DNA from: a virus
Lineage: Duplodnaviria; Caudoviricetes
DNA: 59,643 bases
Direction: 5' to 3' (one strand)
IMG/VR virus record: IMGVR_UViG_3300025445_000001
Span: 1-59,643 of that record
Shown piece by piece: positions 128-32,526 of this stretch (position 1 is its first letter; every line of letters begins with the position of its first letter). The notes under the pieces were generated by a model. That model ran no database searches, was not told the origin of the DNA, and was given only the letters and a program-made list of their open reading frames with translations. The translations under genes and the position numbers were made by a program.

Positions 128-823
128 CTGGGGAAATCCCCCCGACACACCCTTGAGTAGTGTAACCCCGGAGGTCCACATGGCCTGGGCAGGCCCAGCA
201 TACCCTTCTTTTTGCTGCGGGTCAAGGTAGCACCCGGCCACCAGACCCATCATCTTGTGCTTGCCCTTGCGCACCGCCACGTCCCAGATATGAGAGTGGC
301 CCATGATGCATGAGCGGTACTGCTTCTTGAGGAGGGTTGCGGCGGGGTACTCCCCACCCACGCTCTTCCCCATCACGCCCGTGACGAAGTAGTGGGAGGC
401 CGCCATCCCCTTCACCTCGTACTCCTCAAGGAAGGGCACCACCTCCCACCCATGGAGGAAGAGGTTGGAGGTGCTTAGGGTACCCTGCAACTCGGGGACG
501 TTGTCCAGCGCCCTGTCAATGCGGGCCTCGTGGTTCCCCATGAGGAAGACCTTCTTGCCCTTCCACTCCCCCAGGATGCGCAGCGCCACGTTGGCAGCCT
601 CGATGTCGGCAGCTACCGTCCTGCCATCAAAGGAGGCCTTGCGCTTCCCACTCCCCGTGAGGCTACTGCCATCATAGCTGCTGAGGGAGGGCATGTCCGC
701 CAGATCCCCAAGGCAGAGGAGTATGTCGGGGGAGGTGTCCTGCAGGTACTTGAGGAGCCAGCGGAAGCGGCGGGGGTTGACCCCCGGGCGGGCGTGGCTA
801 TCCGGCAGGACGAGGATGTTCAC
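77..823 (-). CDS. Calcineurin-like metallophosphoesterase
   Basis: Motifs DSH, GDLAD, GNHE, SH and GHSH in canonical order; GTG start overlaps the upstream TGA. Confidence 0.85.
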   Translation of the reverse strand: MNILVLPDSHARPGVNPRRFRWLLKYLQDTSPDILLCLGDLADMPSLSSYDGSSLTGSGKRKASFDGRTVAADIEAANVALRILGEWKGKKVFLMGNHEARIDRALDNVPELQGTLSTSNLFLHGWEVVPFLEEYEVKGMAASHYFVTGVMGKSVGGEYPAATLLKKQYRSCIMGHSHIWDVAVRKGKHKMMGLVAGCYLDPQQKEGYAGPAQAMWTSGVTLLKGVSGGFPQDGWEFISTRSLENTYG

Positions 824-2988
824 TTGAAGACCTCCTTGAGACTGGGCAGGTCCTGCTTCTTGTCCCCCAGGATGAGTTTCCAGATGGTGGGACCGATGCC
901 CTCACCGTAGCACCACACGCGGAAGCCCATCTGCTTGGAGTTCTCGAAGAAGTACTGGGCATCCTGCGAGGCGGCAATGAGTTCCCCCGTGCTCCAGAAC
1001 TTCTTGCCGGTCTGCCCGATGGTGATCTCCATGTACTTGGGGCGGCCCTGCTCGTCCTTGGCCTTCTTGTCGATCTGCCCCTCGGGGTAGCAGAAGTCAA
1101 AGCCAAAGAGGTGGAACTCGCTATACCCCAAGGACTGCGCGAGGGAGAGGGCCCTCCACGCAGCACACGTCCCCCCGTTGATGAGGAGGGACCCTTCGGG
1201 AAAGACCTCGCTCTTGATGAGGGCCTGCGTCATCGCATGCCAGCCCCACACGTTCTTGGTCTTTGACATGACGTGCCGGGTGACGCTGGGATCGGACATC
1301 GAGGCCACCAGCACCTTGGTGCTTGGGGGGATATCCTCCATGAGATCCTTGCGTTTGATCCCGTGGGTAGAGATACCGGCAACGTCGCGGGGATCCAGCA
1401 GCACCAGATACTCGGGGTCCACGCCCCAGCTCACCACCGTGGGAAGGGAGTGCTTCACCACCGCGATGTCGGCACCCTCGCGCCACATCTTGATGATCTT
1501 GTCCCTGCGCTTGTGGATGTCGGGGCCCGCCGACACGATGACCAGCTTGCGGTCATGGGGCTTCGCCTTGGTCACCCACCGCGTCAACAGGCCAAGGTTC
1601 TCCTTGACGTTGTTGATGATGTGGTCCTTGGGCATGCAGTCCTGGGCCGTAACCTTGAGGGGCATGGCGCCCATCCCGGCAGCAGGGAGATCCGGGAGAC
1701 CGTCACCCACCGCCGCGATGTTGACGATGCCCCCTCCCTGCACCGCATCCTTGGACTTGTAGACCTTCTTGTCGCGGAGGATGGTGGTGAAGACAGCCTC
1801 CACTCCACGGAACTCGGCAGCGGGGATGCCGCCGTTGTTGTCCGGGGTGTAGTAGTCGTCGAAGACCACGACCGGGACCCGCTTGCATTGCGCCCAATCG
1901 TGTGCGATGGTCGCCGCCGAGTGGCCGCCGTCGAGCCACGCGAAGTCCACGCCCAGCATCTCGCGCAGCGTATCCTTCGTGTCCCCTCGATGGAGATGGA
2001 ACTCGAAGTGCTTGCCCTTCTCCTTCATGGCGGCGGCGAACTCGTTGAGCTTTGCCGTCACCTCGTCGAGGGAGTAGTGCTTCTTGACGTTGTGCTCCTT
2101 GGCGTCGGTATCCGCTGACGCCTCCTCGAAGAGGTCATAGCCGTGATAGACAACGTGATCCCATTTCGCAAACGCGACCTGCGCCATCTGCATAGCACGG
2201 TCACCGTTCCAGGTTCCGGTTTCGAGGATGACTCGTGGCATGTAGTGCTGGACGAGCGCGAGGAGCTGGTCATAGCGGGTCTTGAGGCCCTGGACAACCT
2301 TGGTCTTTCGGTTACCCTTGAGATGTACGAACACGTCGTTGATCGAGCTATGTTCGAAAGCGTCGAGTCCGACATACTCGGGATCGACAAGGTTGTGGGC
2401 TTCAAGCCCGTGAAGCTTGTGAAGCTGGAGGACACGCTCGAAGATGAAGGCGTCGGTCCATTCGCTGTAATTGAAGATCTCCCCGGTCATGTACAGGTCG
2501 TACATGTCGGCGATGAGGGTGCGCCCCTCGTTACCGGCGAAGTAGATGAAGCCGGTCTCGCTGTAGTTGATGCCCTTGCGCCCGAGGTGGGTGATGTGTC
2601 CCTTGCAGATATTGCGCAGCCACTCCAGGGTGAGGGGCTTGCGAGTCACCACGTCCCCGTCGAGCCAGAGGAAGGGGCTCTCGTCCATGGCGGCATCGTG
2701 GAGGGCGAAGACCTTGGCGCAGAACTTCAGTGCATCCAGACGGTAGTTGTATCCCTCAGGGGTTTCCCCATTCTTGTCCGGGTGCAGGGAGCGGAAGGCA
2801 GTGAATCCTTCCACCTCCTCAAGCCTCTTGACGGTGATGGCCCTATGGTCGCATGAGACTTCCGATGGATCCATCCCGTCCACGTAGATGGTGAGGGAGA
2901 TGTTGGAGTCCCACAGGCGCGTGGAATCGAGGAAGTTCTTGCCGTAAAGGTCCCAGCCCTTCGGCCCCCAGGAAGTAACGATTCTCAT
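820..2988 (-). CDS. Three-domain fusion: GT-A glycosyltransferase, class I SAM methyltransferase, Maf/MptE-like (DUF115-type) domain
   Basis: WLDGD DxD motif; ILETGTWNG...GDT...LDGGHS...FDDY; VIVSAGPD...LDP...GGT...LGYSEFHLFGFDFCY. Start moved to 2988 because of the ATGA overlap with the upstream stop. Confidence 0.75.
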   Translation of the reverse strand: MRIVTSWGPKGWDLYGKNFLDSTRLWDSNISLTIYVDGMDPSEVSCDHRAITVKRLEEVEGFTAFRSLHPDKNGETPEGYNYRLDALKFCAKVFALHDAAMDESPFLWLDGDVVTRKPLTLEWLRNICKGHITHLGRKGINYSETGFIYFAGNEGRTLIADMYDLYMTGEIFNYSEWTDAFIFERVLQLHKLHGLEAHNLVDPEYVGLDAFEHSSINDVFVHLKGNRKTKVVQGLKTRYDQLLALVQHYMPRVILETGTWNGDRAMQMAQVAFAKWDHVVYHGYDLFEEASADTDAKEHNVKKHYSLDEVTAKLNEFAAAMKEKGKHFEFHLHRGDTKDTLREMLGVDFAWLDGGHSAATIAHDWAQCKRVPVVVFDDYYTPDNNGGIPAAEFRGVEAVFTTILRDKKVYKSKDAVQGGGIVNIAAVGDGLPDLPAAGMGAMPLKVTAQDCMPKDHIINNVKENLGLLTRWVTKAKPHDRKLVIVSAGPDIHKRRDKIIKMWREGADIAVVKHSLPTVVSWGVDPEYLVLLDPRDVAGISTHGIKRKDLMEDIPPSTKVLVASMSDPSVTRHVMSKTKNVWGWHAMTQALIKSEVFPEGSLLINGGTCAAWRALSLAQSLGYSEFHLFGFDFCYPEGQIDKKAKDEQGRPKYMEITIGQTGKKFWSTGELIAASQDAQYFFENSKQMGFRVWCYGEGIGPTIWKLILGDKKQDLPSLKEVFK

Positions 2989-3746
2989 TTGTAGAGGTCC
3001 ACCACATGTTTCCAGTTGAAGAACTCGTGTTCGACAAGACGGCGCTCTGCCTGCCAAGCGGCAGCGTAGGGGACATCCTTGTAGTTGGCGAACCACGGGC
3101 CCCCGTCAGTGAAATGCACAGCCTTCGGGCTCTCGTAAGAGTAGCGCGTGGTGGGACTGTGGTATGGAAGCCAGTTCCACGTCTCGTCGATTTCCCCTAT
3201 GGAGTCCGTCCACTCGAAACCGTGCAGCCACGACCCCTTCTGTGTGTTGACTGCTTCGAGGTCCAGCTTCCGGCAGTGGGGGTGCAGCGGATTCAGAACC
3301 ATGAGGGAGGACCACAGTTTACGCTGGTACTGCGTCTGCGCCACCCCGTCCATCTTGACGGTTTCTTTGGGAACAAACTTGTGCTTCACCACCGAGACTG
3401 CCACATCGGGGTCGCAGAACTGGAGCATCTTCTTGATGTCATCGAAGAAGAGGAAGTCGCAGTCCACGAAGACCACCAGGTCCTCTATTCCATGCCGCTG
3501 GGCGATGTGAGGCACAAGGAAGCGCGAGAAGGAGAACTCCGTAGAGAACGGCTTCCCGTCCCCCACGTCGATCATCTGGTTGCCTTCCCGATAAGATGTG
3601 CGCCAGTACTTCCCTGCAGCCTTGAGGGAATCCAGCTTGAGGGGGGTGACAATGCAGGGGACGCTACAATGCCGCTTGATGCTATGCGCGGCTACCTTGT
3701 AGGCGATGTCCTCCCGAGAGTCATAGCCAATGAAGATGTGCAGCAT
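2985..3746 (-). CDS. GT8-like (CDI-type) nucleotide-sugar glycosyltransferase
   Basis: IFIGYDSRE, STEFSFSRFLVP, FVDCDFL (DxD), KLWSSLM, HFTDGGPWF. Confidence 0.85.
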   Translation of the reverse strand: MLHIFIGYDSREDIAYKVAAHSIKRHCSVPCIVTPLKLDSLKAAGKYWRTSYREGNQMIDVGDGKPFSTEFSFSRFLVPHIAQRHGIEDLVVFVDCDFLFFDDIKKMLQFCDPDVAVSVVKHKFVPKETVKMDGVAQTQYQRKLWSSLMVLNPLHPHCRKLDLEAVNTQKGSWLHGFEWTDSIGEIDETWNWLPYHSPTTRYSYESPKAVHFTDGGPWFANYKDVPYAAAWQAERRLVEHEFFNWKHVVDLYK

Positions 3747-3752
3747 CTCTGA

Positions 3753-3781
3753 ATACTAGGAGGCCGCACACTGCAAGTCAA
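3753..3781 (-). promoter_or_regulatory. Sigma-70-type promoter, probably leaderless, for the glycosyltransferase operon
   Basis: TTGACT-N17-TAGTAT-N6-ATG(3746); no Shine-Dalgarno. Confidence 0.7.
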
Positions 3782-3927
3782 GACTTTTTGTTGAAGAGGT
3801 CGAAGAGGGTCTTGATCTTCTCTTCTACCACGGCCAACCTGTTGTCCATCTTGGCAAGGAGAATGACGAGGGTGACGAACCCCAGGCCCAAGGGCCAGAG
3901 GCGCGATACGATCTCGATGAAGTCCAT
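3778..3927 (-). CDS. Small single-TM protein (49 aa), not in the ORF track
   Basis: MDFIEIVSRLWPLALGFVTLVILLAKMDNRLAVVEEKIKTLFDLFNKKS; GAGGA RBS and TAATG overlap with the upstream stop. Confidence 0.7.
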   Translation of the reverse strand: MDFIEIVSRLWPLGLGFVTLVILLAKMDNRLAVVEEKIKTLFDLFNKKS

Positions 3928-6812
3928 TATTCCTCCCGTAGCCTGCGAGCGTACTCGGGGCGCACGGACTTCGGCACGTCCTCAAGGTTCTGCGGACGAC
4001 GGTACTCCTGCACCTTCTTGGCGATGCTCTTCTGGAAGGAGTCGGGATCCTGGACGATGCGGTCCCTGAGGGGCCTGCCCTTGTCGTATTGGGCAACCTC
4101 TCGCCGCAGGCGCTGGGCCTCCTGCCTGTAGGAGGGATCCCCGGTCTCCAGGGCACGAGCCTGTGCGGTGGCGATGCTATCCGCATAGGACTTGCGTATG
4201 CGGTCCATGCGCTGGCCCAGATCCTTGGTCTCTTCCTTGGCTTCGCGGGCCTTGGCCACCTCGGTGGGGGTGAAGCCCACGGCCACCTTGCCGAAGTCCC
4301 GGACGCCCTGCAGCTCCTTGGCGGGGAGAACGGGCTCCATCTTGCCAGGGGTAACGTAGCCAAGTTCCTGCATGGTGACGGCGCGGGCCACGTTGCGGAA
4401 GGCCACGGGCAGCAGGGAGGCAAGCGCCATGAGGGGCATGCCCTTCTGCTGGTACTTGTAGGCTTCCTCGGCACCACCCACCACCGCGCCCATGAGGGGA
4501 CCCATGTTCATGAGGTCCATGGTGAGCATGTTGTTGAGGTTGAGGTCGAGGGCCGTCCTCTTGGATATGTCAACACCAAGGGCACGGAAGGGCCCGTTGA
4601 GCACGTAGTCGGCCAGCTCCGCCGGGGTACCCATGAAGCTGAGGGAGGGCACCTCCTTGAAGAACTGCTGCATGGTTTCCCGGAGCTGGGACTTCAAGGC
4701 CGTGGGGCTCATGCCAAGGTAGGGGCCCACCATGTTGGTGAGCTTGTCGATGAGGTCCCCGGCAGGTCCAGCGAAGGGCAGGCCCCACAGCCCCGCCGTG
4801 GCAAACACCCCCAGGAGCATGAGGCCAAGGACCTTCTTGCCCTCGTCGGTGGACATGATGCCCTTGCCACCGTAGTACTCGGCGGCTCGGCGCATGAAGC
4901 CCAGCATCTTGAAGGGGAAGGTGGCGAACTGGAAGACGAGGCCCGGGACAAGGCCGTGCATGTACTGGGCACGGAAGGGTTTCGACATGGAGAACTGGGT
5001 TTCCTCCACGGCGAACTTGGCCGCATCCACCCGGTCATTGACCTCCTGCCCCACGTTCCTGGCGAACTTCTGGATGCGCTGGAAGGCAGCCTCGTTCTTC
5101 GCCATGCGGTATGCAGCAAGGGCGGTGCTGAGACGGTTGATCTGCTCGGCCATGGAGAAGGGCAGCGAGAAGGCTTCGAGGACCTTGCCCGCCTTCTGGC
5201 CCAGCCCGTAGACGGATTCGATCTGGGACTGCGCGAGGAGGGAGCCAGCCTGGTCACGAGTGAGGAGGGCTTCCGCGTAGCCGCTGCGGAAAAGCTCCTT
5301 GATCATTTCCTTCTCGTCCTGCGTGACACCCGACATCTTGTCCACGTCGAGGATCTTGTCGGGATCCAGGGAGAACTTGATGTTGCGCATGATGGTGGTG
5401 GTGGCGATGCTGAGTTCCTTCACCGCATTGCCCGTGCCGCCCACGCCCCCGAGGAAGGGCACCGTGGTGTGCAGGAGCTGGGTGAGGTTGACCAGCGCGG
5501 AGGACAGGTTACCGCCAAGGGTATAGAGGAAAGCCACGCTCTTGAGCTTGGCCACGAGGGCCTCGTTGCTGTGGAGGTACTGCTCCTGCTTCTCCGCGAT
5601 GATGCGCAGCTTGGGATCCTGGATCTTGGAGATAGCAGCCCGGCGGGTTCCCTCCGTGGCCTTGTTGGCAATCCAGTCCGTCATCTGGTAGGAGAAGGGC
5701 GCGAAGGTACTGCGGAAGTAGGTATCGTAGTTGTCCTCGCGCAGCCATCCGGGGATGTTGTACCTCTTGCGCAGGCGCGGCTGCTTGCGCTTCTCGGCCT
5801 CCACCTTCATGCGCTTGAGGATGTCCGCCACCTGCTTCTGCGGATCATTCTTGTTGGGCGTCATGATGGCCTGGAAGAGAACGTCGATGCGGTCCATCTC
5901 GTTGCTGGAGGGCAGGTACAGGTCGTAGAGTTCCTGCTCGGCCTGCAGGTCCCTGAGCTTGATGGTCTGTACGCCTTCCTTCTTGAGCTGGGCCATGCGC
6001 GCCTCGGCCTTGGCGCGGGAACTCTTGAGGGCGGGGAACCTGTCGAGGGCGGGAAGTCCGTCAGCCAGCACCGAGTCATACGCCTCGATGTGCTTCTGGT
6101 CCCCGATGTAGTACTCCACCGCCCATGCACCACGGCGCACCTGCGGGAAGTAGCCCTTGCGTCTGGCGTTCTCGATGCTGCGCAGCACGGAGGCGGCAGC
6201 CATGTTGTCGTCCTTGAGCTTCTGGGTCTCCTCCTCGTTGCGTCCCTGCACGGGGAGGTTCTCGATGTCGCTGATGGACATCGCAGGGTCGAAGCCGAGG
6301 GAGGCCTTGACGGAGGATATGACGTTGTCGTAGATGTCGTCAAGGATGACTCGCACCTCGCGCCGCAGTGCGTTGAGTTCTTTTGGCAGAGTGACGATGT
6401 CCCCCGTCTTCGATCCCACGTGGTCCTCGGTGGCGACGATGGAGGCGCTGCCATCGGGGTTCTCCGTGGCCAGGGTCTCCTCGGCGTTCTCGATCTCCAG
6501 CATGCGCATCATGTCGCGGGACTGCTTGGAGGAGAGCGCCGCCACCTTGCGCATCACGGGCTGGTACCTGTGCCCCATGCGCGCGCGCAGTTCTTCGCCC
6601 AGCTTGAGGGCCTTGACATAGGGACGCAAGGCCGGGAAGCGCGTGGCCAGGTTGTCGATGCTGATGAAGCCGCTGAGGTAACGCTGCGCGTTGCTCATGA
6701 GCTTCAGCAGGGAGGGCTGCAGGTGGCCAGCTTCGATGAGGGAGCGAAGCTCCACCACCTTGGCGAGGGTATTGTCGATGACCCCAGAGCGGGCCGGATT
6801 GCATACCGTCAT
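3927..6812 (-). CDS. Large internal virion/ejection-type protein (961 aa)
   Basis: Helical protein with a hydrophobic segment (LMLLGVFATAGLWGLPF); last gene of the internal-protein block. Confidence 0.65.
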   Translation of the reverse strand: MTVCNPARSGVIDNTLAKVVELRSLIEAGHLQPSLLKLMSNAQRYLSGFISIDNLATRFPALRPYVKALKLGEELRARMGHRYQPVMRKVAALSSKQSRDMMRMLEIENAEETLATENPDGSASIVATEDHVGSKTGDIVTLPKELNALRREVRVILDDIYDNVISSVKASLGFDPAMSISDIENLPVQGRNEEETQKLKDDNMAAASVLRSIENARRKGYFPQVRRGAWAVEYYIGDQKHIEAYDSVLADGLPALDRFPALKSSRAKAEARMAQLKKEGVQTIKLRDLQAEQELYDLYLPSSNEMDRIDVLFQAIMTPNKNDPQKQVADILKRMKVEAEKRKQPRLRKRYNIPGWLREDNYDTYFRSTFAPFSYQMTDWIANKATEGTRRAAISKIQDPKLRIIAEKQEQYLHSNEALVAKLKSVAFLYTLGGNLSSALVNLTQLLHTTVPFLGGVGGTGNAVKELSIATTTIMRNIKFSLDPDKILDVDKMSGVTQDEKEMIKELFRSGYAEALLTRDQAGSLLAQSQIESVYGLGQKAGKVLEAFSLPFSMAEQINRLSTALAAYRMAKNEAAFQRIQKFARNVGQEVNDRVDAAKFAVEETQFSMSKPFRAQYMHGLVPGLVFQFATFPFKMLGFMRRAAEYYGGKGIMSTDEGKKVLGLMLLGVFATAGLWGLPFAGPAGDLIDKLTNMVGPYLGMSPTALKSQLRETMQQFFKEVPSLSFMGTPAELADYVLNGPFRALGVDISKRTALDLNLNNMLTMDLMNMGPLMGAVVGGAEEAYKYQQKGMPLMALASLLPVAFRNVARAVTMQELGYVTPGKMEPVLPAKELQGVRDFGKVAVGFTPTEVAKAREAKEETKDLGQRMDRIRKSYADSIATAQARALETGDPSYRQEAQRLRREVAQYDKGRPLRDRIVQDPDSFQKSIAKKVQEYRRPQNLEDVPKSVRPEYARRLREE

Positions 6813-6815
6813 GTC

Positions 6816-9800
6816 TTACCCACAGGAGATATCTTCGGCAAAGGCTTCACCCCCACGCATCTGCTTGTCGAAGCGTTGCTGCATGGTATCCACGATCTTG
6901 CGGCTGTCCTCAGGGAAATCCTCGGGCAGGATGAGACCGGGGACTTCCCCCTTCTCCTGGTCCCGCATGAAGTCAACGAGGCTGCCGGGTGCTATCCGTC
7001 GAGTTTCGGCAGCGGGAGCTTCCTCTTGCGCCTCTCCTGCAGTGCGGCCTGGAAGTCCCTCTGGGCGTCCTGCTTCTCCCGAGAGGGAGGAAGGGTCTTC
7101 AGTTCCCGCCAGAATTCGCTCAAGACCTCCGGGGGACCCAAGGGATTGGGCATATCGATAGTATACGCCCCTGTAATCTTTTCCTGCATCGAATGCTTTC
7201 CTTAGTTTGGATTCCTCTTGGGGGTAATTGTCAAAATGCTTTTCAAGCCAGGTCTCGGCTTCAGCGGCAAAGTCATCCAGTATCTTGTCTACGTTCAAGT
7301 TGTACTTGCGGTAGAACTTTTCCAAGTCGGAGAAGCTCCCGCCGGGAGTATCCTCCAACGCTTCAGTGTAGTGGATCATGCCGGTGCGGGCAAGCATCAA
7401 GTTGGCTAGGCGAGTTGCAAACTCCCAGCGCCTTCCGTCATCAGCAACTCCATCTGCCAAGTCAGGAGTGATCTTTATTGAGGTATCATAAGCCATCATG
7501 CTCAGCGTACCCATGGGAATGTAGTAGTCAACGCCCATGAGTTCGTTGGGCTTGATTGCAAAATACGTGTTGCCATCAATGCTTCTGACTGCATTGACCC
7601 TTTGATATCTCCTGCCATCACCGGAAAAATTACGAAGGTCGCCCTTTGAAAAGGATGTGTTGTCAGGATGAGAGTGTACGTACATGGCCTTGTTGGTGGG
7701 ATCCAGCAATTGCCTTGCAATCTTGTCGCCCGAGTACACCGAAGAGGTGTTGCCGTCCGTGACAACGTCGATCAGTCCTCCGTTCACGTCAACTGCAAAA
7801 GCATGTTCCTTGCCTGTGCGCCGAGTTTCCGAAGAAAGATACGCAAGCATGTTCTTCGCATTGGTATCAAACGGAAGGTTCTTGCGGTACACGTACAGAG
7901 CTGCTTCATTGCGCAGCTTGCTGCCGAACAGGACATTCTTTCTACCGAGAGGAAGCTCGCCCGGCCAACCTGCCCAAGTATCTGACGCGATGGTAGGTTT
8001 CTCGCTTGGAATGCGATCCACCACAAGCGTATTGTTTCTGGCAAGTAGGAGTTCAATCTCCTTCAAGTACGAAGCGTACTTGTCAAGATTGAGTTCCGGA
8101 ATAGCTTTGAGGATCTGGTCTTTGCCTACAACCTTTACGTCAAATACTTTGCTGTTGTCGTCAAGAATGCGTGCAACATCTTTGGGAATTATCTTGATGG
8201 GCTTGCCTTCAGTGATGGCTCCCAGGATGCCTTGCTTTCTAAAGTACTCCCTAATTGCGAAACGTTGTCCAATGTTGGCGATATCGTCTATCTCGGCCAA
8301 GGAGACGATCTTTTCCCCAAAAATCTTTTCGTTGAGCGCGACGTTATCTTTGAGTTCCTGTGGGACAGGATCCTCTACGACCGCTGCTCCCAGGGATCGC
8401 AGGTACGCGGCAATTGTTTCGACATCCCCATCCTGCCTGAGGGAAGGGGGCACCTTCTCAAGTCTTTGCTTGATCTGATCGTAGGTGGCAAACTTTTCCC
8501 TGTTGACTATAGCCACGAGACGTTGAATATTGTAGTCTTCAAGTAGCGGGTTTGCCGGTTTGATTGCAGGAACTTCCTGTGCCGGTGGAACTTCGGGTGC
8601 AGCAGGCTTAGGTGGTGGAGTCTCTGCCGCAGGGGTTGAAGGCTCCGGCGTTGGAGGCGTATCCACGATAGCGATGCCTGCCGAACTCAGCTCCTGCAGA
8701 AACGCTTCAATCGTTTCGACAGATACCTTTTCGAGATTCGGGACAGAAGCATTGATCTCGTCAAAAGTTATATAGCCGCGCTGCTTTCCGAGATCATAGA
8801 GGGTCTTCAAGCCTGGATCGTCCAGCGGGGAAGCCACGGGTGTCGGGGCAGGCGGCTCGACTTGCACCGGAGCGGGTGTCGGGGCAACAGCCGTGGGTGC
8901 CGGGGTAACCTGAGTCGGGGGTTCCGGGGCTACGGGCTGCGCTGCAGGCTGGGTGGCGGGGATGTTCCCCGTGCCTGGCCAGGTGTTGTTGGAGATGATG
9001 TCGTAGGCTTCCTTGCCCGACATGGTCTCGATGTCGGAGGGCTCGTAGCCCATCGCGAAGAGACGCTGGCGCATCTTGCGATCCACCTGCATCGGCTCCA
9101 CGCGCTGCCAGTAGGGGCCCTTCTGTACGACGAGGCCTTCCCGCTCAAGCATCTTGAAGAGCTTGGGCACGGAGGTGGGATCCTGGATCTCCCGGCCCAG
9201 TGCCTTTTCAAGCCACCGCTTCTGCAGCTTGGTGTCGGGCTTCTCCGCGTTGAGGGCCTCGGCCAGCTTGGGATCGCGGCGAACGTCGAAGGCTTCCTTC
9301 TCGGCATCAGTGGTGAAGCGGAAGAAGGCACCCTTCTGCACCACCTCGCCCTCTGCCACGAGGCGCGCAAGGACTTCCTTGTTCTGCTCCGGAGTGGTTT
9401 GCAGGCCAAGCTCTGCAAGGAACCCGGGAGTGAACATCTGGTTGGCATCCCGAGTACCCTTGTTGGTAGTGGGGATGTTCTCAAGTACGGTGCTGTAGAT
9501 CTCGGAGATGGCATCAGGAGCGGGACCCTTGGGCACGGGAGGCGGGGTCTCGTTCATGAACTCGTAGGCGCCGATCTCCGGGATGTCCTTGATGATCTCG
9601 GGATCTTCGTCCAGGGAGAGCTTGATGTAACGCTCGAACTCCTGGGGGCTCATGTTGACAAGGGCGCCTTCCTCATCGGTGCTGAGGTTCTGGCGCATGG
9701 CCAGCTTGCGCTTGATCTTGTCCGTGATGGGAGCCTCGGGACCCAGCAGCTTGGCGGGGTCGTACTCCCGCGCAGCGGCATAGGCCTCGGGGAGCTGCAC

Positions 9801-10937
9801 CGCACTGAGGTAGGCGGCGCGCTGGCTCTCGATCTTCTTGGTCTCGGCGGCCCGCTGCTGCGCCGTGATGGCTTCCTGCTCGGCCTTCTGCTCCTCGGCC
9901 TGGCGCTGCTGCTCCTCCTCGGCACGGGCGGCACGACGAGCACCATAGGCCCCGGCAGCACCACCTATGGGCGCGGCACCGATGCCACCCTTGAGGGCGG
10001 AGTCCACCACTTCCTTCCAGTTGAAACTCTTGTCCGCGAGGACGTTGACTGCAGCCTGGTCGAGAAGTTCCTGTGCGCCCTCGGTCAAGCCCTCGGTGGC
10101 AGCAGTCTCAAGGGCACCGGCAAGGGCACCGCTCCATCCGGGCCTGCCCTTCAGCAGCTTGGAGGAGATGAGGTTGGTGAGCCTGTCGCCCATCTCCACG
10201 CCCTGCGTCTTGCGCAGCAGCATCACGGGAGCGATGGAGTCGAGGGCACTCTTGAGCGAGCCTACCGCGAAGGCCACGCCGGGACGCAACTGCTGCGTCT
10301 CATCGTAGATGTTGGCAAAGGACTCGGGGATGTTCTGCAGGCCAGAGCCCACCATGGCACCAGCGGCGGCGCCGATCTGCTGGCTCACCTGCTGCATCGC
10401 AGCGGCGTAGGCAGCCTCCTTGGTGACGGTCTGGCCCGCAGCCTGCGCGGCACTCTCGATGGCAGCGGCCCGCGAGGCAACGAGTCCGGTGGCGGCCCTT
10501 CCCGCAGCGAAGCGAGTACCCAGGGCACCCACGCCCACGCCCGGGATGAGTGCCGTGGCGATGGAGGGAAGTGCCTGTCCGAAGGCCTCCGCACCGTAGT
10601 CGTAGAGGGTACCTAGGCTGTTGACATCCTCGTAGGACATCTTGGCCTGGAGACCAGCCTTGTCAAGGCGGTCCATGCGCTCCTTGTACGCCTGCAGGTT
10701 TGCCCTTGCAGCATCGTCGTAGCCAAGGGCAGACTGCGCCATGGCCGGGAGAGCCTCGCTGAGGAGACCCTTGGTCTGCTCCCACCCCGTGGCAAGGCCC
10801 CTCGTGAAGGCACCGGGCCCCTCGGGGTTCTTGCTGGGCACCCAGTCCATGCCATCCCACTCGATGACATAGGCACCCGGAGTGTTCTTGAACGGGACGT
10901 ACTTGCTACCATCCCATTCATACTTGGTGTCGGCCAT
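6816..10937 (-). CDS. Large multidomain internal virion protein (1373 aa) with sigma-70 R1.1-like repeats and a JAB domain
   Basis: Ala/Gly-rich ejection-type N-terminus, Pro-rich linkers, LKTLYDLGKQRGYITFDEIN, E...HSHP...S..D. Confidence 0.75.
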   Translation of the reverse strand: MADTKYEWDGSKYVPFKNTPGAYVIEWDGMDWVPSKNPEGPGAFTRGLATGWEQTKGLLSEALPAMAQSALGYDDAARANLQAYKERMDRLDKAGLQAKMSYEDVNSLGTLYDYGAEAFGQALPSIATALIPGVGVGALGTRFAAGRAATGLVASRAAAIESAAQAAGQTVTKEAAYAAAMQQVSQQIGAAAGAMVGSGLQNIPESFANIYDETQQLRPGVAFAVGSLKSALDSIAPVMLLRKTQGVEMGDRLTNLISSKLLKGRPGWSGALAGALETAATEGLTEGAQELLDQAAVNVLADKSFNWKEVVDSALKGGIGAAPIGGAAGAYGARRAARAEEEQQRQAEEQKAEQEAITAQQRAAETKKIESQRAAYLSAVQLPEAYAAAREYDPAKLLGPEAPITDKIKRKLAMRQNLSTDEEGALVNMSPQEFERYIKLSLDEDPEIIKDIPEIGAYEFMNETPPPVPKGPAPDAISEIYSTVLENIPTTNKGTRDANQMFTPGFLAELGLQTTPEQNKEVLARLVAEGEVVQKGAFFRFTTDAEKEAFDVRRDPKLAEALNAEKPDTKLQKRWLEKALGREIQDPTSVPKLFKMLEREGLVVQKGPYWQRVEPMQVDRKMRQRLFAMGYEPSDIETMSGKEAYDIISNNTWPGTGNIPATQPAAQPVAPEPPTQVTPAPTAVAPTPAPVQVEPPAPTPVASPLDDPGLKTLYDLGKQRGYITFDEINASVPNLEKVSVETIEAFLQELSSAGIAIVDTPPTPEPSTPAAETPPPKPAAPEVPPAQEVPAIKPANPLLEDYNIQRLVAIVNREKFATYDQIKQRLEKVPPSLRQDGDVETIAAYLRSLGAAVVEDPVPQELKDNVALNEKIFGEKIVSLAEIDDIANIGQRFAIREYFRKQGILGAITEGKPIKIIPKDVARILDDNSKVFDVKVVGKDQILKAIPELNLDKYASYLKEIELLLARNNTLVVDRIPSEKPTIASDTWAGWPGELPLGRKNVLFGSKLRNEAALYVYRKNLPFDTNAKNMLAYLSSETRRTGKEHAFAVDVNGGLIDVVTDGNTSSVYSGDKIARQLLDPTNKAMYVHSHPDNTSFSKGDLRNFSGDGRRYQRVNAVRSIDGNTYFAIKPNELMGVDYYIPMGTLSMMAYDTSIKITPDLADGVADDGRRWEFATRLANLMLARTGMIHYTEALEDTPGGSFSDLEKFYRKYNLNVDKILDDFAAEAETWLEKHFDNYPQEESKLRKAFDAGKDYRGVYYRYAQSLGSPGGLERILAGTEDPSSLSGEAGRPEGLPGRTAGEAQEEAPAAETRRIAPGSLVDFMRDQEKGEVPGLILPEDFPEDSRKIVDTMQQRFDKQMRGGEAFAEDISCG

Positions 10938-10939
10938 GG

Positions 10940-12298
10940 TTACCTGGACGGAGGACGTATGAGAGTTTGAGGCGCTTCGGGAGCCTCCGTGGAGAGGCCC
11001 ATCGACTGCATCATGAACTGCATGGCGCGCGCCTGTAGCTTACGAGCTTCCTCATCATTCCCCTGCGCGGCTGCAGCTTGAGCCTGCTTCATGAGGGCAG
11101 CAGCGTTGTTAGCGGCAACTCGATCCTGTGCCGTGTCACTGCGCAGCAGGCCCGCGTAGTTGCCGGTCTTGAGACCGATCTCCAGGGTGGCTCGCGCCAA
11201 CTCGGCACTCTCCTGCGGAGTGAGGCGCGCACCGGATTCGCGCTTGCCCTGCAGCTCCGACACCGTGGCGATGACACCACTGGACTCAAGGTCACGGAAG
11301 ATCTGGGAGGGCTGACGCGCAAGGTTGGCCTTGAGCGTATCCCTTGCGATGTCCACGTGGGCGCTCTGCACGAGGACCCCGGCCATGGCAACCTTCTGGC
11401 TCTGGGCCGACAGGGCTTCGCTGGACATGTTGTGGCGCTGCATCTCACGCAGCTTGTCTGTTTCGAGGTTGTAGGTCTTGATGGCCTTGTCGCGCTCGAA
11501 AACAGAGTTCTCGATGTCGCGCTTGATCCCGGCCATGCGCAGCTTGTCCTCGCGGGACTCCTTGGCCTCTTCCTTCTCGCTGAGGCGCTGCTTCTCGCGC
11601 TCGCCACGGTACTCCCTGACGCCCTCGGCAACGGGACCGGCGATCTGGCCAAGGGCACCCTGCCCCAGCTTGGGCTGCCCAGCCAAGATCTTGAGGCCGG
11701 TCTCAAGGAGAGCCATGCCCTGGTCAGCCTTGTACGTGGGCTGTGCCTTGCGCTCCTCGGGAAGCTCCGCCATCACGCGCTGCTTGTACGCCTCCGGGTC
11801 CTCGAACTTGCCCTGCTGCACGGTAAAGGCACGACCTCCCCCACCAGCACCGGGCTGACCAAGGAAGCGCCGCATGGCATCCACCGTGCTCTCCGGAGGC
11901 TGCTCCTGGGCAGGTGCCGGAGGTGCCGGGGGAGGCGGAGGAGGTGGTTCGGCAACTGGCGGGGATGGGAGGAAAGACCTGAGAGCCCTGCCTGCAATGG
12001 CTTCGGCAGTGAGGTCTTCCGCAGAGGGCCTGTACTGCGGGGTTTCGGCACGTTCCGCCCCTCGCCTCTCAAGGTACTGCTCTCGAAAGGCTGGAGTCGG
12101 AAAACCTCCGGCCTCGGGAGGACGCTCGATTACGGCCTGCGGAATACCTCCCGGCATGGTACGCTCAAGCCGACGCATCCGCTCCAGATTGGTAATGTAC
12201 TCCCTGCGAGAAGCCGGAAGCCTAAGATACTCGGGAGTGCTCTTGAACCTCCTGAGTTCATCCGGTCCCATTTCCTCGATACGAGAGATGTCAGGCAT
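10940..12298 (-). CDS. Putative internal virion/ejection protein
   Basis: Pro-rich then coiled-coil Ala/Gln/Glu-rich; start placed at the ATG just after the SLT gene stop. Confidence 0.55.
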   Translation of the reverse strand: MPDISRIEEMGPDELRRFKSTPEYLRLPASRREYITNLERMRRLERTMPGGIPQAVIERPPEAGGFPTPAFREQYLERRGAERAETPQYRPSAEDLTAEAIAGRALRSFLPSPPVAEPPPPPPPAPPAPAQEQPPESTVDAMRRFLGQPGAGGGGRAFTVQQGKFEDPEAYKQRVMAELPEERKAQPTYKADQGMALLETGLKILAGQPKLGQGALGQIAGPVAEGVREYRGEREKQRLSEKEEAKESREDKLRMAGIKRDIENSVFERDKAIKTYNLETDKLREMQRHNMSSEALSAQSQKVAMAGVLVQSAHVDIARDTLKANLARQPSQIFRDLESSGVIATVSELQGKRESGARLTPQESAELARATLEIGLKTGNYAGLLRSDTAQDRVAANNAAALMKQAQAAAAQGNDEEARKLQARAMQFMMQSMGLSTEAPEAPQTLIRPPSR

Positions 12299-12299
12299 G

Positions 12300-12827
12300 T
12301 CAGTAGGTCCTGGGTCGGGGGGAAGGCGGGAAGTCCGAGAGGCCCTGGATGAACTCCTCGTGCGGCGGACGGGAACCAAGTTCCTCCATCTCGCGCATGC
12401 CCGTGGGGATGGAGTTCTCGAACTTGGGATTCATGCTGTGGACGTAAAGGATATAGCGACGAACAGGTTCCGGGAGCTTGCCAAGCCAGTCATCCCCGTG
12501 CTTGGCGATGTGGCGGCGCAGGCGAGTGGGTCCCCAGTTGTAGGCGGCGATGCCCTTCAGCTCGTCGTTGAACATATCCTGCAGCTTCTTGGCGTAGCCC
12601 AGGCCCCCGGTGATGTTCTGGTACGGGTCATTGCGATCAATGCCCATGACCTTCTCGACCTCAGGGCCAAGCTGCATGGGACCTACGTAGCGGGTGCCCC
12701 TGCCTGCGGTGGCCTTGTTCTTCTCGTTGCCCGTCTCGCGATAGTAGATGCCGAAGAGCGACGAGGGGAACTGCCCACTCGCCATCAACTTCTCATAGAA
12801 CTTGTCGAGTTCTTCGTTCGTGGGCAT
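12300..12827 (-). CDS. Lytic transglycosylase (SLT) domain protein, probably virion-associated
   Basis: ET catalytic motif, GPMQL, N..GG..Y, AAYNWGP. Confidence 0.85.
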   Translation of the reverse strand: MPTNEELDKFYEKLMASGQFPSSLFGIYYRETGNEKNKATAGRGTRYVGPMQLGPEVEKVMGIDRNDPYQNITGGLGYAKKLQDMFNDELKGIAAYNWGPTRLRRHIAKHGDDWLGKLPEPVRRYILYVHSMNPKFENSIPTGMREMEELGSRPPHEEFIQGLSDFPPSPRPRTY

Positions 12828-12828
12828 T

Positions 12829-13803
12829 TTATCCCCACGGAGATAGAGACTTGAGGTATTCCCATCCACCGCTGAGAGCATTCTTGATGGGATTGTAGTA
12901 AGTCTCGCCTGCCTTGGTGGTAGACCCAGCAAGGTTGTAGATACCAGCACCAGTAAGAAGAGTGCCAGCCGCCGTGGTGAGAGGAGAAGCCTGCGGAGTG
13001 ATAACTTGGCCCGTGGTAGTGGTGGTAGCCTGCGGAGCTACACCACGGAAGATTTGGCTGAGGCGCTCGATCTGCCCGAGATCGTAGCCCTCCTTGCGCA
13101 TCTGCTCCTGGAAGGCGAGGTCCCGCTGCTGCTGCTCAAGCTGGCGCGGAAGGGCCTGTGCCCCGAGGACGGACTGGAGGCCCTGCAGAGCCATGCCCTG
13201 CTCCGCTGCTCCAAGCTGGCGGAAAAGGTCGGCACCCAGAAGCTGGCGCTTGGCCTCCTCGCCGAAGAGATCCGTGGCAGCCTTGTATGCCCTCTCCTGC
13301 CCGGTAGACTGGATGTCCGCCAGGCGCTGGCCAAGGTTGCGCTCGGCCTCCGACTCCACGACGCCCTGGCGCGCACCACCAAAAGCACCCACGCGAGAAG
13401 CCTGGAAGCCGATCTGCGGGCGCATCTTCTCGTAGTCCCTGATGGCCTCGCGCTTGGCGATATCGGTGACCTGCTGCGTGTAGGGATTCATGTACTGCGC
13501 GAGGTCGATGTCCTGCACACCCCTTGTGCCTTGCAGGGCAGAAGCCATCCCAGCAGCCAGTCCCGGCTGATAGGCGAAAGCGGCAGTAGGAGTAGCGGCA
13601 ATCGCCTGCTGCTCAATGTCACTGAGAGGTGCGATGCGCCGCGCCGGGTCATAGTACTGGTACTCCGGCATGGCCTTGGCGGCAGACTCCAGGATGTTGC
13701 GCTGGATGTTGGCCGCCCAGTCGGGAAGCTCCGCCGCCGTCACCGTGGTGGTAGGCGTCGAAGTCGTGGAGCCTTTGGTGAGTTGGTCCCAAAGTGAAGC
13801 CAT
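12829..13803 (-). CDS. Putative DNA transfer/pilot protein
   Basis: Gln/Ala-rich; YMNPYTQQV and GAFGGARQG motifs typical of podovirus ejection proteins. Confidence 0.6.
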   Translation of the reverse strand: MASLWDQLTKGSTTSTPTTTVTAAELPDWAANIQRNILESAAKAMPEYQYYDPARRIAPLSDIEQQAIAATPTAAFAYQPGLAAGMASALQGTRGVQDIDLAQYMNPYTQQVTDIAKREAIRDYEKMRPQIGFQASRVGAFGGARQGVVESEAERNLGQRLADIQSTGQERAYKAATDLFGEEAKRQLLGADLFRQLGAAEQGMALQGLQSVLGAQALPRQLEQQQRDLAFQEQMRKEGYDLGQIERLSQIFRGVAPQATTTTTGQVITPQASPLTTAAGTLLTGAGIYNLAGSTTKAGETYYNPIKNALSGGWEYLKSLSPWG

Positions 13804-14752: not shown

Positions 14753-15012
14753 GTCTTGTCCACCTTTACGAGTCCCTTATCCTGCAGGTCGCTGAGGAGC
14801 TTCACTACTGTATAGGCCACCGCAGTAACATTGATGCTACCAAGATCTATGGTAGCACTGGTGGGTATTGTACCAGAAACCGCGTAGCCTGTCACTGCGG
14901 GTCCCGTCACCACCTGCCCGTGGTAGAGGTTGAGGACGCGCACCAGCTCGCCCCAACTGCGCTGGGCGTCGGGCTGCAGGGATGCGGGAGGAAGGGGAAG
15001 CAGGGGCTTCAT
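14749..15012 (-). CDS. Hypothetical protein (87 aa)
   Basis: ATGA overlaps at both ends. Confidence 0.6.
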   Translation of the reverse strand: MKPLLPLPPASLQPDAQRSWGELVRVLNLYHGQVVTGPAVTGYAVSGTIPTSATIDLGSINVTAVAYTVVKLLSDLQDKGLVKVDKT

Positions 15013-16862
15013 CGCTGGCCATCCTGCGCGATGCGGAAGCGCATGGCACCCAGGCGCCAAGAAGTGTTGACTCCGTCACCCTCGATGCGGTAATATGCAT
15101 GGCGGCCCCGTATGCGCATATCAATCTTCTGGGTCTGCGCCGACACCGTGAAGGGCCCCTTGGTGATCTCCTGCGCAACCGGCGTGTTGGGATACTTGAG
15201 GGTGTGCAGGGTGATCTCGATGTTGCCCGGCAGCGTCTCCCCGTTGCGATCCGAGAAGTCGGGGATGATGCGATCCATGAAGATGAGTTCCTGACCCGCA
15301 TCGAGGTCGAAGAGGTTGCTCTCGATGTAGGAGGCCAGGGCCTGCCCATCGGCATCGTTGCCATACTCGTGGTAGTACAATTTGGTGGCGCTGGCATCGT
15401 ACCCGGCGGCGATGGGGTAGGTGGCAATCCCCTGGTCGATCCACGCCGTGCGCACCATCGTGCCGATGCTCCACGTCGCCTCCATGTAGTTGTAGATGAC
15501 GTAGCTATCGACTTCCCCTGAGGTGGTGGGATAGAACCAGATGACCTCGTTGTAGGAGGTGTTGCTCCCACAGGTGATCTTGTCAAGCTGGGTGCGATCC
15601 AGAGCCTCGAAGACGTAGCGCAGCACGTCGCACTTGATGGGCTGGGCGGCGGCGCCATCGTAGACCATGAAGCGTTCATCGGCCATCCAGAAGGTGCGGC
15701 CCGCAACCTCCACCATGGCATGCTGCCCGAGGGTGCCGCAGTTGGTACCAATAAGTTGGAACCCGAAGGTGTAGGGCGGGCCAACCTGCTGCATGCTGTA
15801 GAGGTTCTCGTCGGTCCAGATGAGTATCTGGCCACGGGTGCGGCGCGCCGCCACGATCTTGGAGGCACCGCTGAGGACCTTGTCGCCCGCCGTGTTGGTG
15901 GCCGAAGCGGTCCAGTCGTTGATGTTTTCCTGGCTGCACCACCTGATGTAGAGGGGGTTCACCACCGAGGTGAGGGCATCGGGGCACCCGAAGGTGATGA
16001 GGTGGCGGTCCTCTGGGGAGACGAGGATCTGGGTATTCTGGGTGGGCGAGGCGGTAACCTCATAAGCTCGGTTTGCCACACCGCCACTGCTATCCCAGTA
16101 GTAGATGCCTCCGCTGCGAGGGCATGCCGCCAGGTCCTCGCCCCAATTGTCCATGCTCCAGTAGCGCAGCGGGGCCACGAAGGCGGAGGAAGCGGGAGTT
16201 CCCCAACCCTGGCCGCCACTCCATACGCCTGCGCCCCACCCGAAGCTGGGAGCGTTGCTGGCGAAACCGGAGGGGTGGAGGAAGAAGCCGGTTGCGAGGC
16301 CCCCGCCCGAAGCCGAGGTGGCCGCAGCCGTGACGCCCGTGTCGATGGTGAAGGAGTTGGCGTCCACCACCGTGATGGGGAATCCCCCCAGGGGAGCCGA
16401 GACGGGGTAGACGTTGCCGCCCACCGTGGTTGCCACGGAGGTAAAGTAGAAGTAGTCGCCGGTGCTATGGCCGTGGGCGGAGACGGAAACGGTGATGTTG
16501 GTGGAGCCCGCCGATGTGCTGATGATGTTGGAGGCGGACACGGAGGTATCCACGGGGGTGATGTCGTAGTACTTGCCCCCGTCCCACACCATGAGGTGGG
16601 AGTTGGTGCCCACCGCCAGGTAGGTGGTGCCCGCCAGGTTGACCCACGTGAAGAGGGAGCGGCCCACGCCCGGGACGGTAACGCTATCCCCCACGCCATT
16701 GATGTTCTGCCAACCCCCAATCTTCTCGGGCTGGCCGAAGCGGAAGCGCACCTTGTCGCCATCGTACCAGCCACCCTCGCCCGCATACTTGGTGAGTTCG
16801 CGGTTGATGCCAGCCTTGGCACCTACGGAGATGAGGCGGGGAGATGCGATGCCGTCAGCCAC
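15009..16862 (-). CDS. Tail nozzle / packaged-DNA stabilisation protein (tail tubular B or P22 gp10-like)
   Basis: 617 aa, beta-rich propeller-like, with an inserted Ser/Thr-rich HG...GD...F(T/S)I domain; position in tail module. Confidence 0.65.
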   Translation of the reverse strand: MADGIASPRLISVGAKAGINRELTKYAGEGGWYDGDKVRFRFGQPEKIGGWQNINGVGDSVTVPGVGRSLFTWVNLAGTTYLAVGTNSHLMVWDGGKYYDITPVDTSVSASNIISTSAGSTNITVSVSAHGHSTGDYFYFTSVATTVGGNVYPVSAPLGGFPITVVDANSFTIDTGVTAAATSASGGGLATGFFLHPSGFASNAPSFGWGAGVWSGGQGWGTPASSAFVAPLRYWSMDNWGEDLAACPRSGGIYYWDSSGGVANRAYEVTASPTQNTQILVSPEDRHLITFGCPDALTSVVNPLYIRWCSQENINDWTASATNTAGDKVLSGASKIVAARRTRGQILIWTDENLYSMQQVGPPYTFGFQLIGTNCGTLGQHAMVEVAGRTFWMADERFMVYDGAAAQPIKCDVLRYVFEALDRTQLDKITCGSNTSYNEVIWFYPTTSGEVDSYVIYNYMEATWSIGTMVRTAWIDQGIATYPIAAGYDASATKLYYHEYGNDADGQALASYIESNLFDLDAGQELIFMDRIIPDFSDRNGETLPGNIEITLHTLKYPNTPVAQEITKGPFTVSAQTQKIDMRIRGRHAYYRIEGDGVNTSWRLGAMRFRIAQDGQR

Positions 16863-29749: not shown

Positions 29750-30219
29750 CAGTAGTACTTGGCGGGACGGGTGCCCCGCTTCTCGGCGCCCTTGCCCTTC
29801 ACGCCGCCGCCCTTGGCATACGGCTTGGTGATGGTAGCGGCATCGGGATTGTTGCGGTCACTACGCGCGGGAGGAGCCTTGCGGCGATTCTCCTCGATCT
29901 TCTTCATCATGGCGTCCATCTTGGCCTTGTTGTTTCGGGCCTCGAACTGAAGCTTGTCGGCAAGGTAGTTGCCGCTGCGGCGGTACTCCGCCTCGTCCTC
30001 GGCAGACACCTGGCTGCCCTCTGCGTACTTCTTCACCTTGCCACCCTCCTTGTAGGCGGGACCCTTTGCCCGCATGGCGCTGCTGAGAAAGCCGCTCTTG
30101 TCGTCGGCTTTGTTAAATTCCTTTGCTAACTTGGGAGAAACTCCCACCTTCTTAGCAAAGACCGGATCGTGCGCGGCACCCGCCATCATGCGAGCCTGCG
30201 CGAAAGACTTACTGGGCAC
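29749..30219 (-). CDS. Basic protein with xxGG motifs
   Basis: MPSKS..Q...M..AAH.P.FAKKVG; YKEGG, YAKGG. Confidence 0.65.
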   Translation of the reverse strand: MPSKSFAQARMMAGAAHDPVFAKKVGVSPKLAKEFNKADDKSGFLSSAMRAKGPAYKEGGKVKKYAEGSQVSAEDEAEYRRSGNYLADKLQFEARNNKAKMDAMMKKIEENRRKAPPARSDRNNPDAATITKPYAKGGGVKGKGAEKRGTRPAKYY

Positions 30220-32497: not shown

Positions 32498-32526
32498 AGT
32501 CTACCACCAATCCCCCAAACAATCAA
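32498..32526 (-). promoter_or_regulatory. Sigma-70-type promoter, probably leaderless, for the portal gene
   Basis: TTGATT-N17-TAGACT-N6-ATG(32491). Confidence 0.65.

Follow-up and report, generated by a model that had tools for sequence, protein, structure and literature searches.

Why should a bacteriophage protein carry a piece of the housekeeping sigma factor of bacteria? The question is raised by an uncultured phage known as a metagenome record, IMG/VR virus record IMGVR_UViG_3300025445_000001, a complete record (59,643 bp, direct terminal repeats), the whole of which is called the window below. On the minus strand, at 6816–10937, a confirmed open reading frame (ORF) encodes a protein of 1373 amino acids (aa), here P0001, in which an earlier note, made by eye from the letters of the window, had placed domains resembling region 1.1 of sigma-70 factors. 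No part of the housekeeping sigma factor is less well understood than region 1.1, which has been known solely in cis, as an N-terminal domain. Taken together, the domain identity, architecture, family pattern and genomic setting of the region 1.1 module are reported here with high confidence; its proposed role in the infected cell is a more tentative matter.

The homology is clearest in the first of two copies. A search with the Pfam profile Sigma70_r1_1 (PF03979), which the earlier note had suggested as a check, gave 54.3 bits for the whole protein (E 1.3e-14) in two stretches, against a cut-off of 22.5 bits. Copy 1 (aa 704–764; 8646–8828, minus strand) is acidic and holds the core of the Sigma70_r1_1 domain: the Pfam stretch within it covers aa 709–763, corresponding to positions 6–59 of the 81 in the model, and the copy scored alone keeps 47.1 bits over model positions 6–55. 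Against the Protein Data Bank (PDB), phmmer matched it to region 1.1 of T. maritima sigmaA (2k6x, E 4.8e-6) and to RpoD chains (7ye1, E 1.3e-4; 9gdo, E 5.4e-4; E. coli, about 7e-3). In the opposite direction, a profile of the phage modules run against 5.8 billion sequences retrieved RpoD proteins, with E values down to 1.8e-8. The domain is thus present where the note had seen it, and judged from sequence, copy 1 is genuinely homologous to the folded core that region 1.1 forms in sigma-70 factors.

Copy 2 (aa 798–857; 8367–8546, minus strand) has a net charge of 0. Scored alone it reaches 13.2 bits (E 0.092), below the Pfam cut-off, over the same model positions 6–55 as copy 1, and its phmmer search against the PDB gave no sigma chain. 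Aligned to copy 1 by hhalign, it is recovered with 94.8% probability (E 5e-8, 51 columns). The second copy that the note had read at about 8370–8546 therefore holds as a relative of copy 1, but not as a Pfam match in its own right, and by profile comparison it is a real, yet diverged, duplicate. Furthermore, a 26-nucleotide (nt) direct repeat with 81% identity and 297 nt spacing lies in frame at 8399–8424 in copy 2 and 8696–8721 in copy 1, joining the same helix of both copies at the start of the last helix. This repeat looks like the trace of a tandem duplication; a short two-copy repeat can be due to chance, and we count it as additional support only.

The two copies stand between linkers that can be read directly from the translation. 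Linker 1 (aa 653–703; 8829–8981, minus strand) precedes copy 1 and has 16 prolines among its 51 residues, while linker 2 (aa 765–797; 8547–8645, minus strand), also Pro-rich, separates the copies. After copy 2 comes a helical region of unassigned fold (aa 858–975; 8013–8366, minus strand), conserved only in the four relatives that carry the JAB-like cargo domain described below, and it is here that two further degenerate copies had been suspected. This segment matches no Pfam family at E≤10, aligns to copies 1 and 2 with hhalign probabilities of 0.2–10%, and gives no meaningful PDB match. The four-copy reading was rejected on these grounds, and the number of copies in P0001 is two.

No other sigma family of Pfam matches P0001, so that regions 1.2, 2, 3 and 4 do not follow and the protein is not a sigma factor. 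Its composition is uneven. The GC content lies at 0.45–0.55 over about 7000–8800 and at 0.60–0.70 in the flanks, which agrees with the AT-richer DNA pointed out earlier at about 7130–8830. The GC content at third codon positions (GC3) is 0.78–0.86 up to aa 652 and breaks off sharply at copy 1, with 0.57 there, 0.55 in copy 2 and 0.56 over the remaining cargo; the tail has 0.70.

Structure prediction gave a concordant picture. A single-sequence AlphaFold2 model of aa 690–985 has a mean predicted local distance difference test score (pLDDT) of 49.6, with 70–87 in copy 1 and 53–67 in copy 2, and copy 1 is predicted to run in the order helix, short strand, helix, helix, short strand. When this model was compared with the PDB by Foldseek, the top three matches were 9a58 (B. 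subtilis SigA model), 2k6x (T. maritima) and 5mww (B. subtilis sigma 1.1), all at E>0.02; the match to 5mww has a root-mean-square deviation of 2.3 Å over 50 columns and a probability of 0.99. The search of BFVD viral folds returned no match (all E>0.5). In a second model, aa 919–972 take up the order of helices and strands of copy 1, but with a pLDDT of 32–58, which is no evidence for an extra copy. The predicted structure thus agrees with the sequence result and adds no independent weight to it.

A survey of homologues, also proposed in the note, places the module in a family that exchanges its enzymes. What relatives with at least 81% N-terminal identity have in common is the stretch up to about residue 650, followed by the Pro-rich linker and a region 1.1 module; downstream they differ. 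P0001 and P0002 combine a JAB-like cargo with two region 1.1 copies, P0003 and P0004 the same cargo with one. In P0005–P0009 and in the loci L002 (6001–11085) and L004 (6001–10680), one copy is followed by a GHKL ATPase and a WLM-like zincin with an HExxH motif; this swapped cargo, which P0099 and P0100 have as well, scores 32.7–43 bits with HATPase_c_3, and the zincin behind it gives weak WLM-like matches (E 0.0015–0.0038). Two related contigs with GHKL cargo also have the lower GC in the cargo half. Copy 2, found in P0001 and P0002, is absent from P0003–P0009. Finally, P0098, a protein of 903 aa on a 3.2-kb contig, carries no enzyme and consists of N-terminus, region 1.1-like module, Pro-rich linker and tail.

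Two further members with GHKL cargo, P0099 and P0100, place one or two FtsK_gamma domains beside region 1.1. The domain scores 54.8 bits in P0099 (aa 685–743) and 113.7 bits in P0100 (two stretches, the best at aa 852–909). In the host, FtsK gamma is the winged helix of the cell-division DNA translocase, which reads KOPS (FtsK orienting polar sequences) sites and activates XerD. Together with region 1.1, the presence of this domain in sister proteins suggests that the phages of this family may be gathering small interaction domains from machines essential to the host.

The module itself is kept throughout this close family. Beside the score of P0001, PF03979 gives 51.5 bits in P0002, 43.0 in P0100, 42.6 in P0099, 28.4 in P0006, 24.6 in L002 and 22.8 in P0004, and precomputed matches exist for P0003, P0005, P0007, P0008 and P0009. 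Across two cargo types, 12 of 12 scanned full-length members reach the cut-off. The module of P0098 scores 15.0 bits, below it. The retention of a region 1.1-like module in this enzyme-free protein argues, therefore, that the module is a payload and not merely an adaptor. At least six region 1.1 alleles can be told apart, and they assort independently of the cargo: the allele of P0001 recurs at 96.5% identity in the GHKL-type P0005, while the JAB-type P0002 has a different one.

Further out, the module becomes rare. Precomputed PF03979 matches occur in 10 of the 120 N-terminal relatives listed, none of which falls under 81% N-terminal identity among these 10. FtsK_gamma is found in one of 30 second-tier relatives, those with 44–58% N-terminal identity (P0115, precomputed Pfam). 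A protein of 1200 aa, P0010, which has a JAB-like domain and a zincin-like HEILHH motif, matches region 1.1 with a sub-threshold 17.5 bits and may represent a second lineage with the domain.

Is region 1.1 found in other proteins that are not sigma factors? A profile of eight phage modules was run against longer proteins, and the 120 listed fall into three groups: 101 with additional sigma-70 families, 14 that belong to the phage family or are P0010, and five pieces of at most 156 aa with PF03979 alone. Out of 80 cellular loci bearing a similar module, 77 show the motif of sigma region 2 in frame with it, and the other three run off the locus; among representative hits that were checked, Sigma70_r1_1 was present in 10 of 10 and r1_2 also in eight. 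The whole of P0001 found no match by tblastn in 50,697 GenBank phage records. Copy 1 matched nine of these records, all of them rpoD or host DNA and seven annotated as sigma or rpoD; the other two are H1, which reads as a dnaG–rpoD stretch, and H6, an unannotated 1.5 kb record whose 34.0% identity equals that of enterobacterial rpoD hits. Scanning 185,579 species genomes with the N-terminal alignment gave no prophage or cellular relative. Scans of IMG/VR gave four loci for the whole protein and two for the module, and the ESM Atlas search returned only short clusters bearing region 1.1 alone. Within the reach of these homology searches, region 1.1 outside sigma factors is confined to a small phage lineage.

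Tandem region 1.1 pairs were also seen in two cellular-looking metagenome fragments, P0216 (130 aa) and P0028 (273 aa; PF03979 116.8 bits, two stretches). Duplication of region 1.1 is therefore not unique to this phage.

The region 1.1 copies are the fastest-evolving segments of P0001. Compared with P0002, identity is 93.8–98.0% in the N-terminal parts and linker 1, and 57.7% in copy 1, 84.8% in linker 2, 65.0% in copy 2, 77.1% in aa 858–975, 90.1% in the JAB-like domain and 95.2% in the tail. Two related DNA sequences were available for codon analysis. Between the window and L004, the Nei–Gojobori method gives a nonsynonymous rate (dN) of 0.29 and a synonymous rate (dS) of 0.44 in region 1.1 (52 codons; dN/dS 0.66), and in four flanking segments a dN of 0.014–0.029 and a dS of 0.09–0.47 (dN/dS 0.05–0.16). 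Since dS is alike in region 1.1 and its flanks, the excess lies in amino-acid change.

A recent capture from a host rpoD was considered as the origin of the module and is not supported: the best identities to cellular region 1.1 sequences are 32–54%, and the N-terminal part has a much higher GC3 than the module with its 0.55–0.57. Going by source names, eight of the 10 named entries among the best-scoring RpoDs are alphaproteobacterial (the names include Bosea, Methylobacterium, Devosia, Hyphomicrobiaceae, Rhizomicrobium, Xanthobacteraceae and Breoghania, of which only the order of Bosea was checked). As a pointer to the phage host this is only a hint, the candidate list being biased by shared words.

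We then turn to the genomic setting, which bears on how such a protein could reach host RNA polymerase. The minus-strand arm encodes a terminase (32523–34001), a portal (30209–32491), a major head protein (25531–26439), two tail-fibre genes with Collar domains (19457–22735 and 17557–18789) and a virion structural protein (15009–16862). Upstream of P0001 lies a gene of a 'DNA ejection protein' family (12829–13803, minus strand; phrog_4287, E 1.1e-19), after which, in the order of the arm, come three large, closely packed genes at 10940–12379, 6816–10937 (P0001) and 3927–6812. The packing is tight: the upstream ORF ends immediately before the start of P0001, and the downstream ORF begins 3 nt past the P0001 stop. 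The other arm of the genome encodes a DNA polymerase.

The N-terminus of P0001 points in the same direction. Its conserved domain (aa 1–340; 9918–10937, minus strand) contains Gly/Ala-rich hydrophobic stretches (aa 118–145 and 221–241) and finds at least 121 clusters of proteins of 755–2403 aa at E≤1e-5. By our own tally, PF18858 occurs in 67 of the 78 most distant proteins listed among the N-terminal matches, and in the distant relatives P0135, P0177 and P0188 the domains LPD39, ART-PolyVal, LPD23 and LPD38 were verified, Pfam families that go back to the polyvalent proteins described in 2017 (PMC5512222). Weak PHROG matches of the N-terminus (phrog_6958, phrog_2206) are to a virion structural protein (E 3.7e-7) and, in the N4 virion RNA polymerase family, to the N-terminal portion (E 1.2e-4). 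Because P0001 is multidomain, lies among virion and packaging genes, and has N-terminal homology to carriers of LPD and ART-PolyVal domains, it is assigned by these features to the class of polyvalent proteins, as a modular giant member. From the gene order, the weak N-terminal PHROG matches and the homology to polyvalent-family carriers, we infer that P0001 is probably carried in the particle and injected.

The rest of the genome supplies no transcription machinery that we could detect. Neither Sigma70_r2 nor Sigma70_r4 has a match anywhere in the phage genome, and no RNA polymerase gene was found either by PF00940 in the genome, a weak negative since control genomes also gave 0 matches, or by PHROG scans of 29 large ORFs. 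These results support the note's statement that the phage has no RNA polymerase or sigma gene of its own; the phage would therefore depend on the polymerase of its host.

These observations lead to a hypothesis in which the module targets host RNA polymerase. P0001 would be packed in the capsid and leave it with the phage DNA. Once inside the host, its acidic region 1.1 module would act in trans on RNA polymerase, docking in the positively charged downstream-DNA channel, the seat of sigma's region 1.1 before open-complex formation. As an outcome, host initiation would be blocked, or the polymerase would be held beside the entering DNA end, itself possibly bound by the adjoining winged-helix-type modules of P0001; the adjacent enzyme would thereby be positioned near the polymerase. 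Fast change of the module would track variants of the host polymerase or serve escape from host recognition. We regard this mechanism as plausible, if somewhat short of an even chance. The domain is most economically read as a payload aimed at polymerase because the phage would be host-dependent, the protein belongs to an injected class, and the domain is kept despite enzyme swaps and in P0098. It may block the polymerase, park it at the entering DNA or guide the adjacent enzyme to it.

The literature offers a basis for such a mode of action. Region 1.1 is acidic; within free sigma it touches regions 2 and 4 and has an inhibitory effect on DNA binding (PMC7641759). The acidic T7 protein Ocr binds the same positively charged channel, and T7 Gp2 is an example of phage exploitation of region 1.1 (PMC7064336). 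A more elaborate version of the hypothesis can be formulated, which we consider doubtful: the trans-acting region 1.1, tethered by DNA-binding modules to the leading genome end, would plug the downstream-DNA channel of host polymerase, above all that of core enzyme and of alternative-sigma holoenzymes without region 1.1, so that host transcription is frozen or polymerase is parked for phage promoters, with the alleles reflecting an arms race with polymerase or with a host sensor.

The charge of the module was compared with that of RpoD. The copy 1 alleles have a net charge of −5 to −16 per 100 aa, and the RpoD segments one of −13.3 ± 4.3 (n=31, the first 31 usable of 80 loci). Copy 1 alleles lie within the range of the RpoD segments and are mostly less acidic than the RpoD mean.

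Several observations weigh against a region 1.1 module aimed at polymerase. The acidity is not general, since copy 2 is neutral and the P0098 allele slightly basic (+5 per 100 aa). The phage module is without Pfam model positions 60–81, the acidic C-terminal part of the model, and without sigma's anchor; in sigma itself, region 1.1 is kept in the polymerase channel by its tether to sigma domain 2. Structural support is limited by the mean pLDDT of the model (49.6) and by Foldseek E values that all exceed 0.02. None of 30 second-tier relatives matches PF03979 at E≤0.01, which makes the module an accessory, dispensable in the wider family. There is no close donor rpoD, with 32–54% identity over 80 genome loci and about 43% to the best full-length RpoDs. 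Finally, a dN/dS of 0.66 fits relaxed constraint as well as diversifying selection or an arms race, two cases that 52 codons cannot separate.

Much of this evidence could also be read as that of a spacer: a folded, sigma-derived element between Pro-rich linkers, serving in spacing or packaging as a small stable domain of a protein that has to be packed and threaded out, and having no host target. Copy number varies, with two copies in P0001 and P0002 and one in the others, nonsynonymous change is high, charge is conserved neither in copy 2 nor in the P0098 allele, and 30 of 30 second-tier relatives do without the module. Against a spacer, every one of the 12 full-length members keeps a module that reaches the Pfam cut-off despite cargo swaps, P0098 retains it although the enzyme is missing, and copy 1 alleles remain acidic like RpoD region 1.1. 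We consider the spacer unlikely.

The acidity of copy 1 would equally suit a general DNA mimic, that is, a decoy for host DNA-binding defences such as restriction enzymes (compare Ocr and ArdA) and not for RNA polymerase. This is quite unlikely in our view, given that a domain of 50 residues with a net charge of −4 to −7 is far from the extended charge array of Ocr, and that copy 2 is neutral. Moreover, RNA polymerase and sigma itself are the only known partners of the region 1.1 fold (PMC7641759). In favour of a decoy, polyvalent proteins have been interpreted as early counter-defence weapons (PMC5512222), and the C-terminal part of the 961-aa protein encoded next to P0001 has a DarB-like antirestriction PHROG among its matches (E 1.9e-8). 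Ocr itself is one mimic that reaches both kinds of target (PMC7064336).

An anti-sigma action in trans, with the module binding regions 2 and 4 of host sigma and locking the primary sigma off DNA, would build on the DNA-binding inhibition that accompanies this contact in free sigma (see above), yet it is improbable, as that contact is intramolecular and weak. The last alternative, a plain small nucleic-acid-binding domain in a row of such domains that binds phage or host DNA, fits the position of the module in an array with winged-helix-like repeats, its neighbourhood with FtsK_gamma in P0099 and P0100, and the lack of acidity in copy 2 and the P0098 allele, but it is likewise improbable, with copy 1 alleles acidic and inside the RpoD region 1.1 range and with region 1.1 not known to bind DNA and, in sigma, inhibiting DNA binding (PMC7641759).

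How does a polymerase-directed region 1.1 module compare with known systems? With region 1.1 of primary sigma-70 (PF03979; 2k6x, 5mww) it shares a homologous core, the acidity of copy 1 and the same predicted order of helices and strands; unlike it, the phage module does not stand at the N-terminus of a sigma factor, is not followed by regions 1.2–4, lies between Pro-rich linkers and occurs in tandem. The protein as a whole resembles the polyvalent proteins described from phages and conjugative elements by Iyer, Burroughs, Anand, de Souza and Aravind (2017; PMC5512222) in that it is giant, multidomain and encoded with portal, terminase and virion genes, and P0001 has its N-terminus in common with carriers of LPD39, ART-PolyVal, LPD23 and LPD38. 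The word 'sigma' occurs 0 times in the main text of that paper; the supplementary list of 131 domains could name the module.

Among phage inhibitors, T7 Ocr (PMC7064336) and SPO1 Gp44 (PMC8208478) are acidic proteins that occupy the polymerase DNA channel early in infection, which is the mode proposed here. They differ in having an unrelated sequence and fold; moreover, the cell makes them as free proteins early after phage entry, and they do not belong to a virion protein. T7 Gp2 employs the host's own region 1.1, whereas the present phage would supply its own. The nearest precedents for delivery are the N4 gp50 virion RNA polymerase and T4 Alt, which travel inside the head and, once injected, take control of transcription (PMC5512222); the weak N-terminal match to the N4 family was given above. 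In contrast to both, P0001 has no polymerase or ADP-ribosyltransferase domain, and the proposed effector is a sigma fragment.

The earlier note knew of no described virion protein of this kind, and within the reach of our searches this holds. We found no literature on region 1.1 in phage virion proteins, and in the text of a 2026 preprint, in which 351,065 phage proteomes were scanned with PF03979 among ten profiles, only single-domain sigma-2/sigma-4 proteins are discussed. The protein class and the PF03979 domain were both known already; what appears new is the region 1.1 module in such a protein. Should the more elaborate version of the hypothesis be true, this would be the first known virus to use a fragment of the host housekeeping sigma as a weapon. 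A natural, freely evolving region 1.1 delivered in trans would give a direct handle on the effect of the isolated domain on RNA polymerase, and would extend the injected phage effectors by a novel type of module, a piece of transcription machinery taken from the host. With at least six alleles on a nearly constant backbone, the family also amounts to a ready-made specificity experiment.

The remaining parts of P0001 frame the module on both sides. Ahead of linker 1 are two winged-helix-like repeats (aa 500–545 and 566–615) and a short helical motif (aa 616–652), together at 8982–9440 on the minus strand. They are named by their pattern only, and in homologues the region gives weak Pfam matches (SelB-wing_2, E 0.079; DUF5817_CT, E 0.077).

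The cargo of P0001 is a candidate JAB/JAMM-like domain (aa 976–1310; 7008–8012, minus strand). A JAMM pattern is formed by E1044, H1045, H1088, H1090, S1097 and D1100 (window 7638–7808), and five of these residues (E1044, H1088, H1090, S1097 and D1100) show no variation in the alignment, being the same in 16 of 16 sequences. The spacer from HxH to S has 6 residues here, and the canonical JAMM spacer has 7. Pfam scores stay below their cut-offs (Prok-JAB 14.1 bits, cut-off 25; Toxin-JAB1 13.7 bits, cut-off 21). The core of the model is predicted with a pLDDT of 76–97, and its best Foldseek match is P. furiosus JAMM1 (5lda; probability 0.89, E 0.13), with BubCD and CSN5 next in rank; the E values of all three exceed 0.1, and no match has E≤0.001. 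The JAB-like motif occurs 17 times in 16 of the 215 collected proteins; the cargo is also present in P0010, P0012, P0014, P0089 and P0094, and in P0011, where it is accompanied by ddrB-ParB and a methyltransferase. In P0116 (1542 aa) the motif block appears twice, at residues 870 and 1217.

The protein closes with a C-terminal tail (aa 1330–1373; 6819–6950, minus strand) ending in GGEAF..DISCG. This tail is conserved in relatives of every cargo type, including the enzyme-free P0098, and may be a signal for packaging, docking or processing. In more distant relatives the ends read ...DDYSCG (P0012) and ...SIPFSCRVKK (P0010 and P0011).

Downstream of P0001, the gene at 3927–6812 (minus strand) encodes the neighbour of 961 aa, a PLxRFG ('tail-700') domain protein (NCBIfam NF032893, 177.6 bits, cut-off 100), which over its C-terminal 550 aa resembles the ends of giant PHROG families with 1,664–4,647 profile positions. 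Beyond it, at 820–3096 (minus strand), lies a gene for a 758-aa fusion of a Methyltransf_24 methyltransferase domain and an MptE-like domain, adjoined by a metallophosphoesterase gene (77–823).

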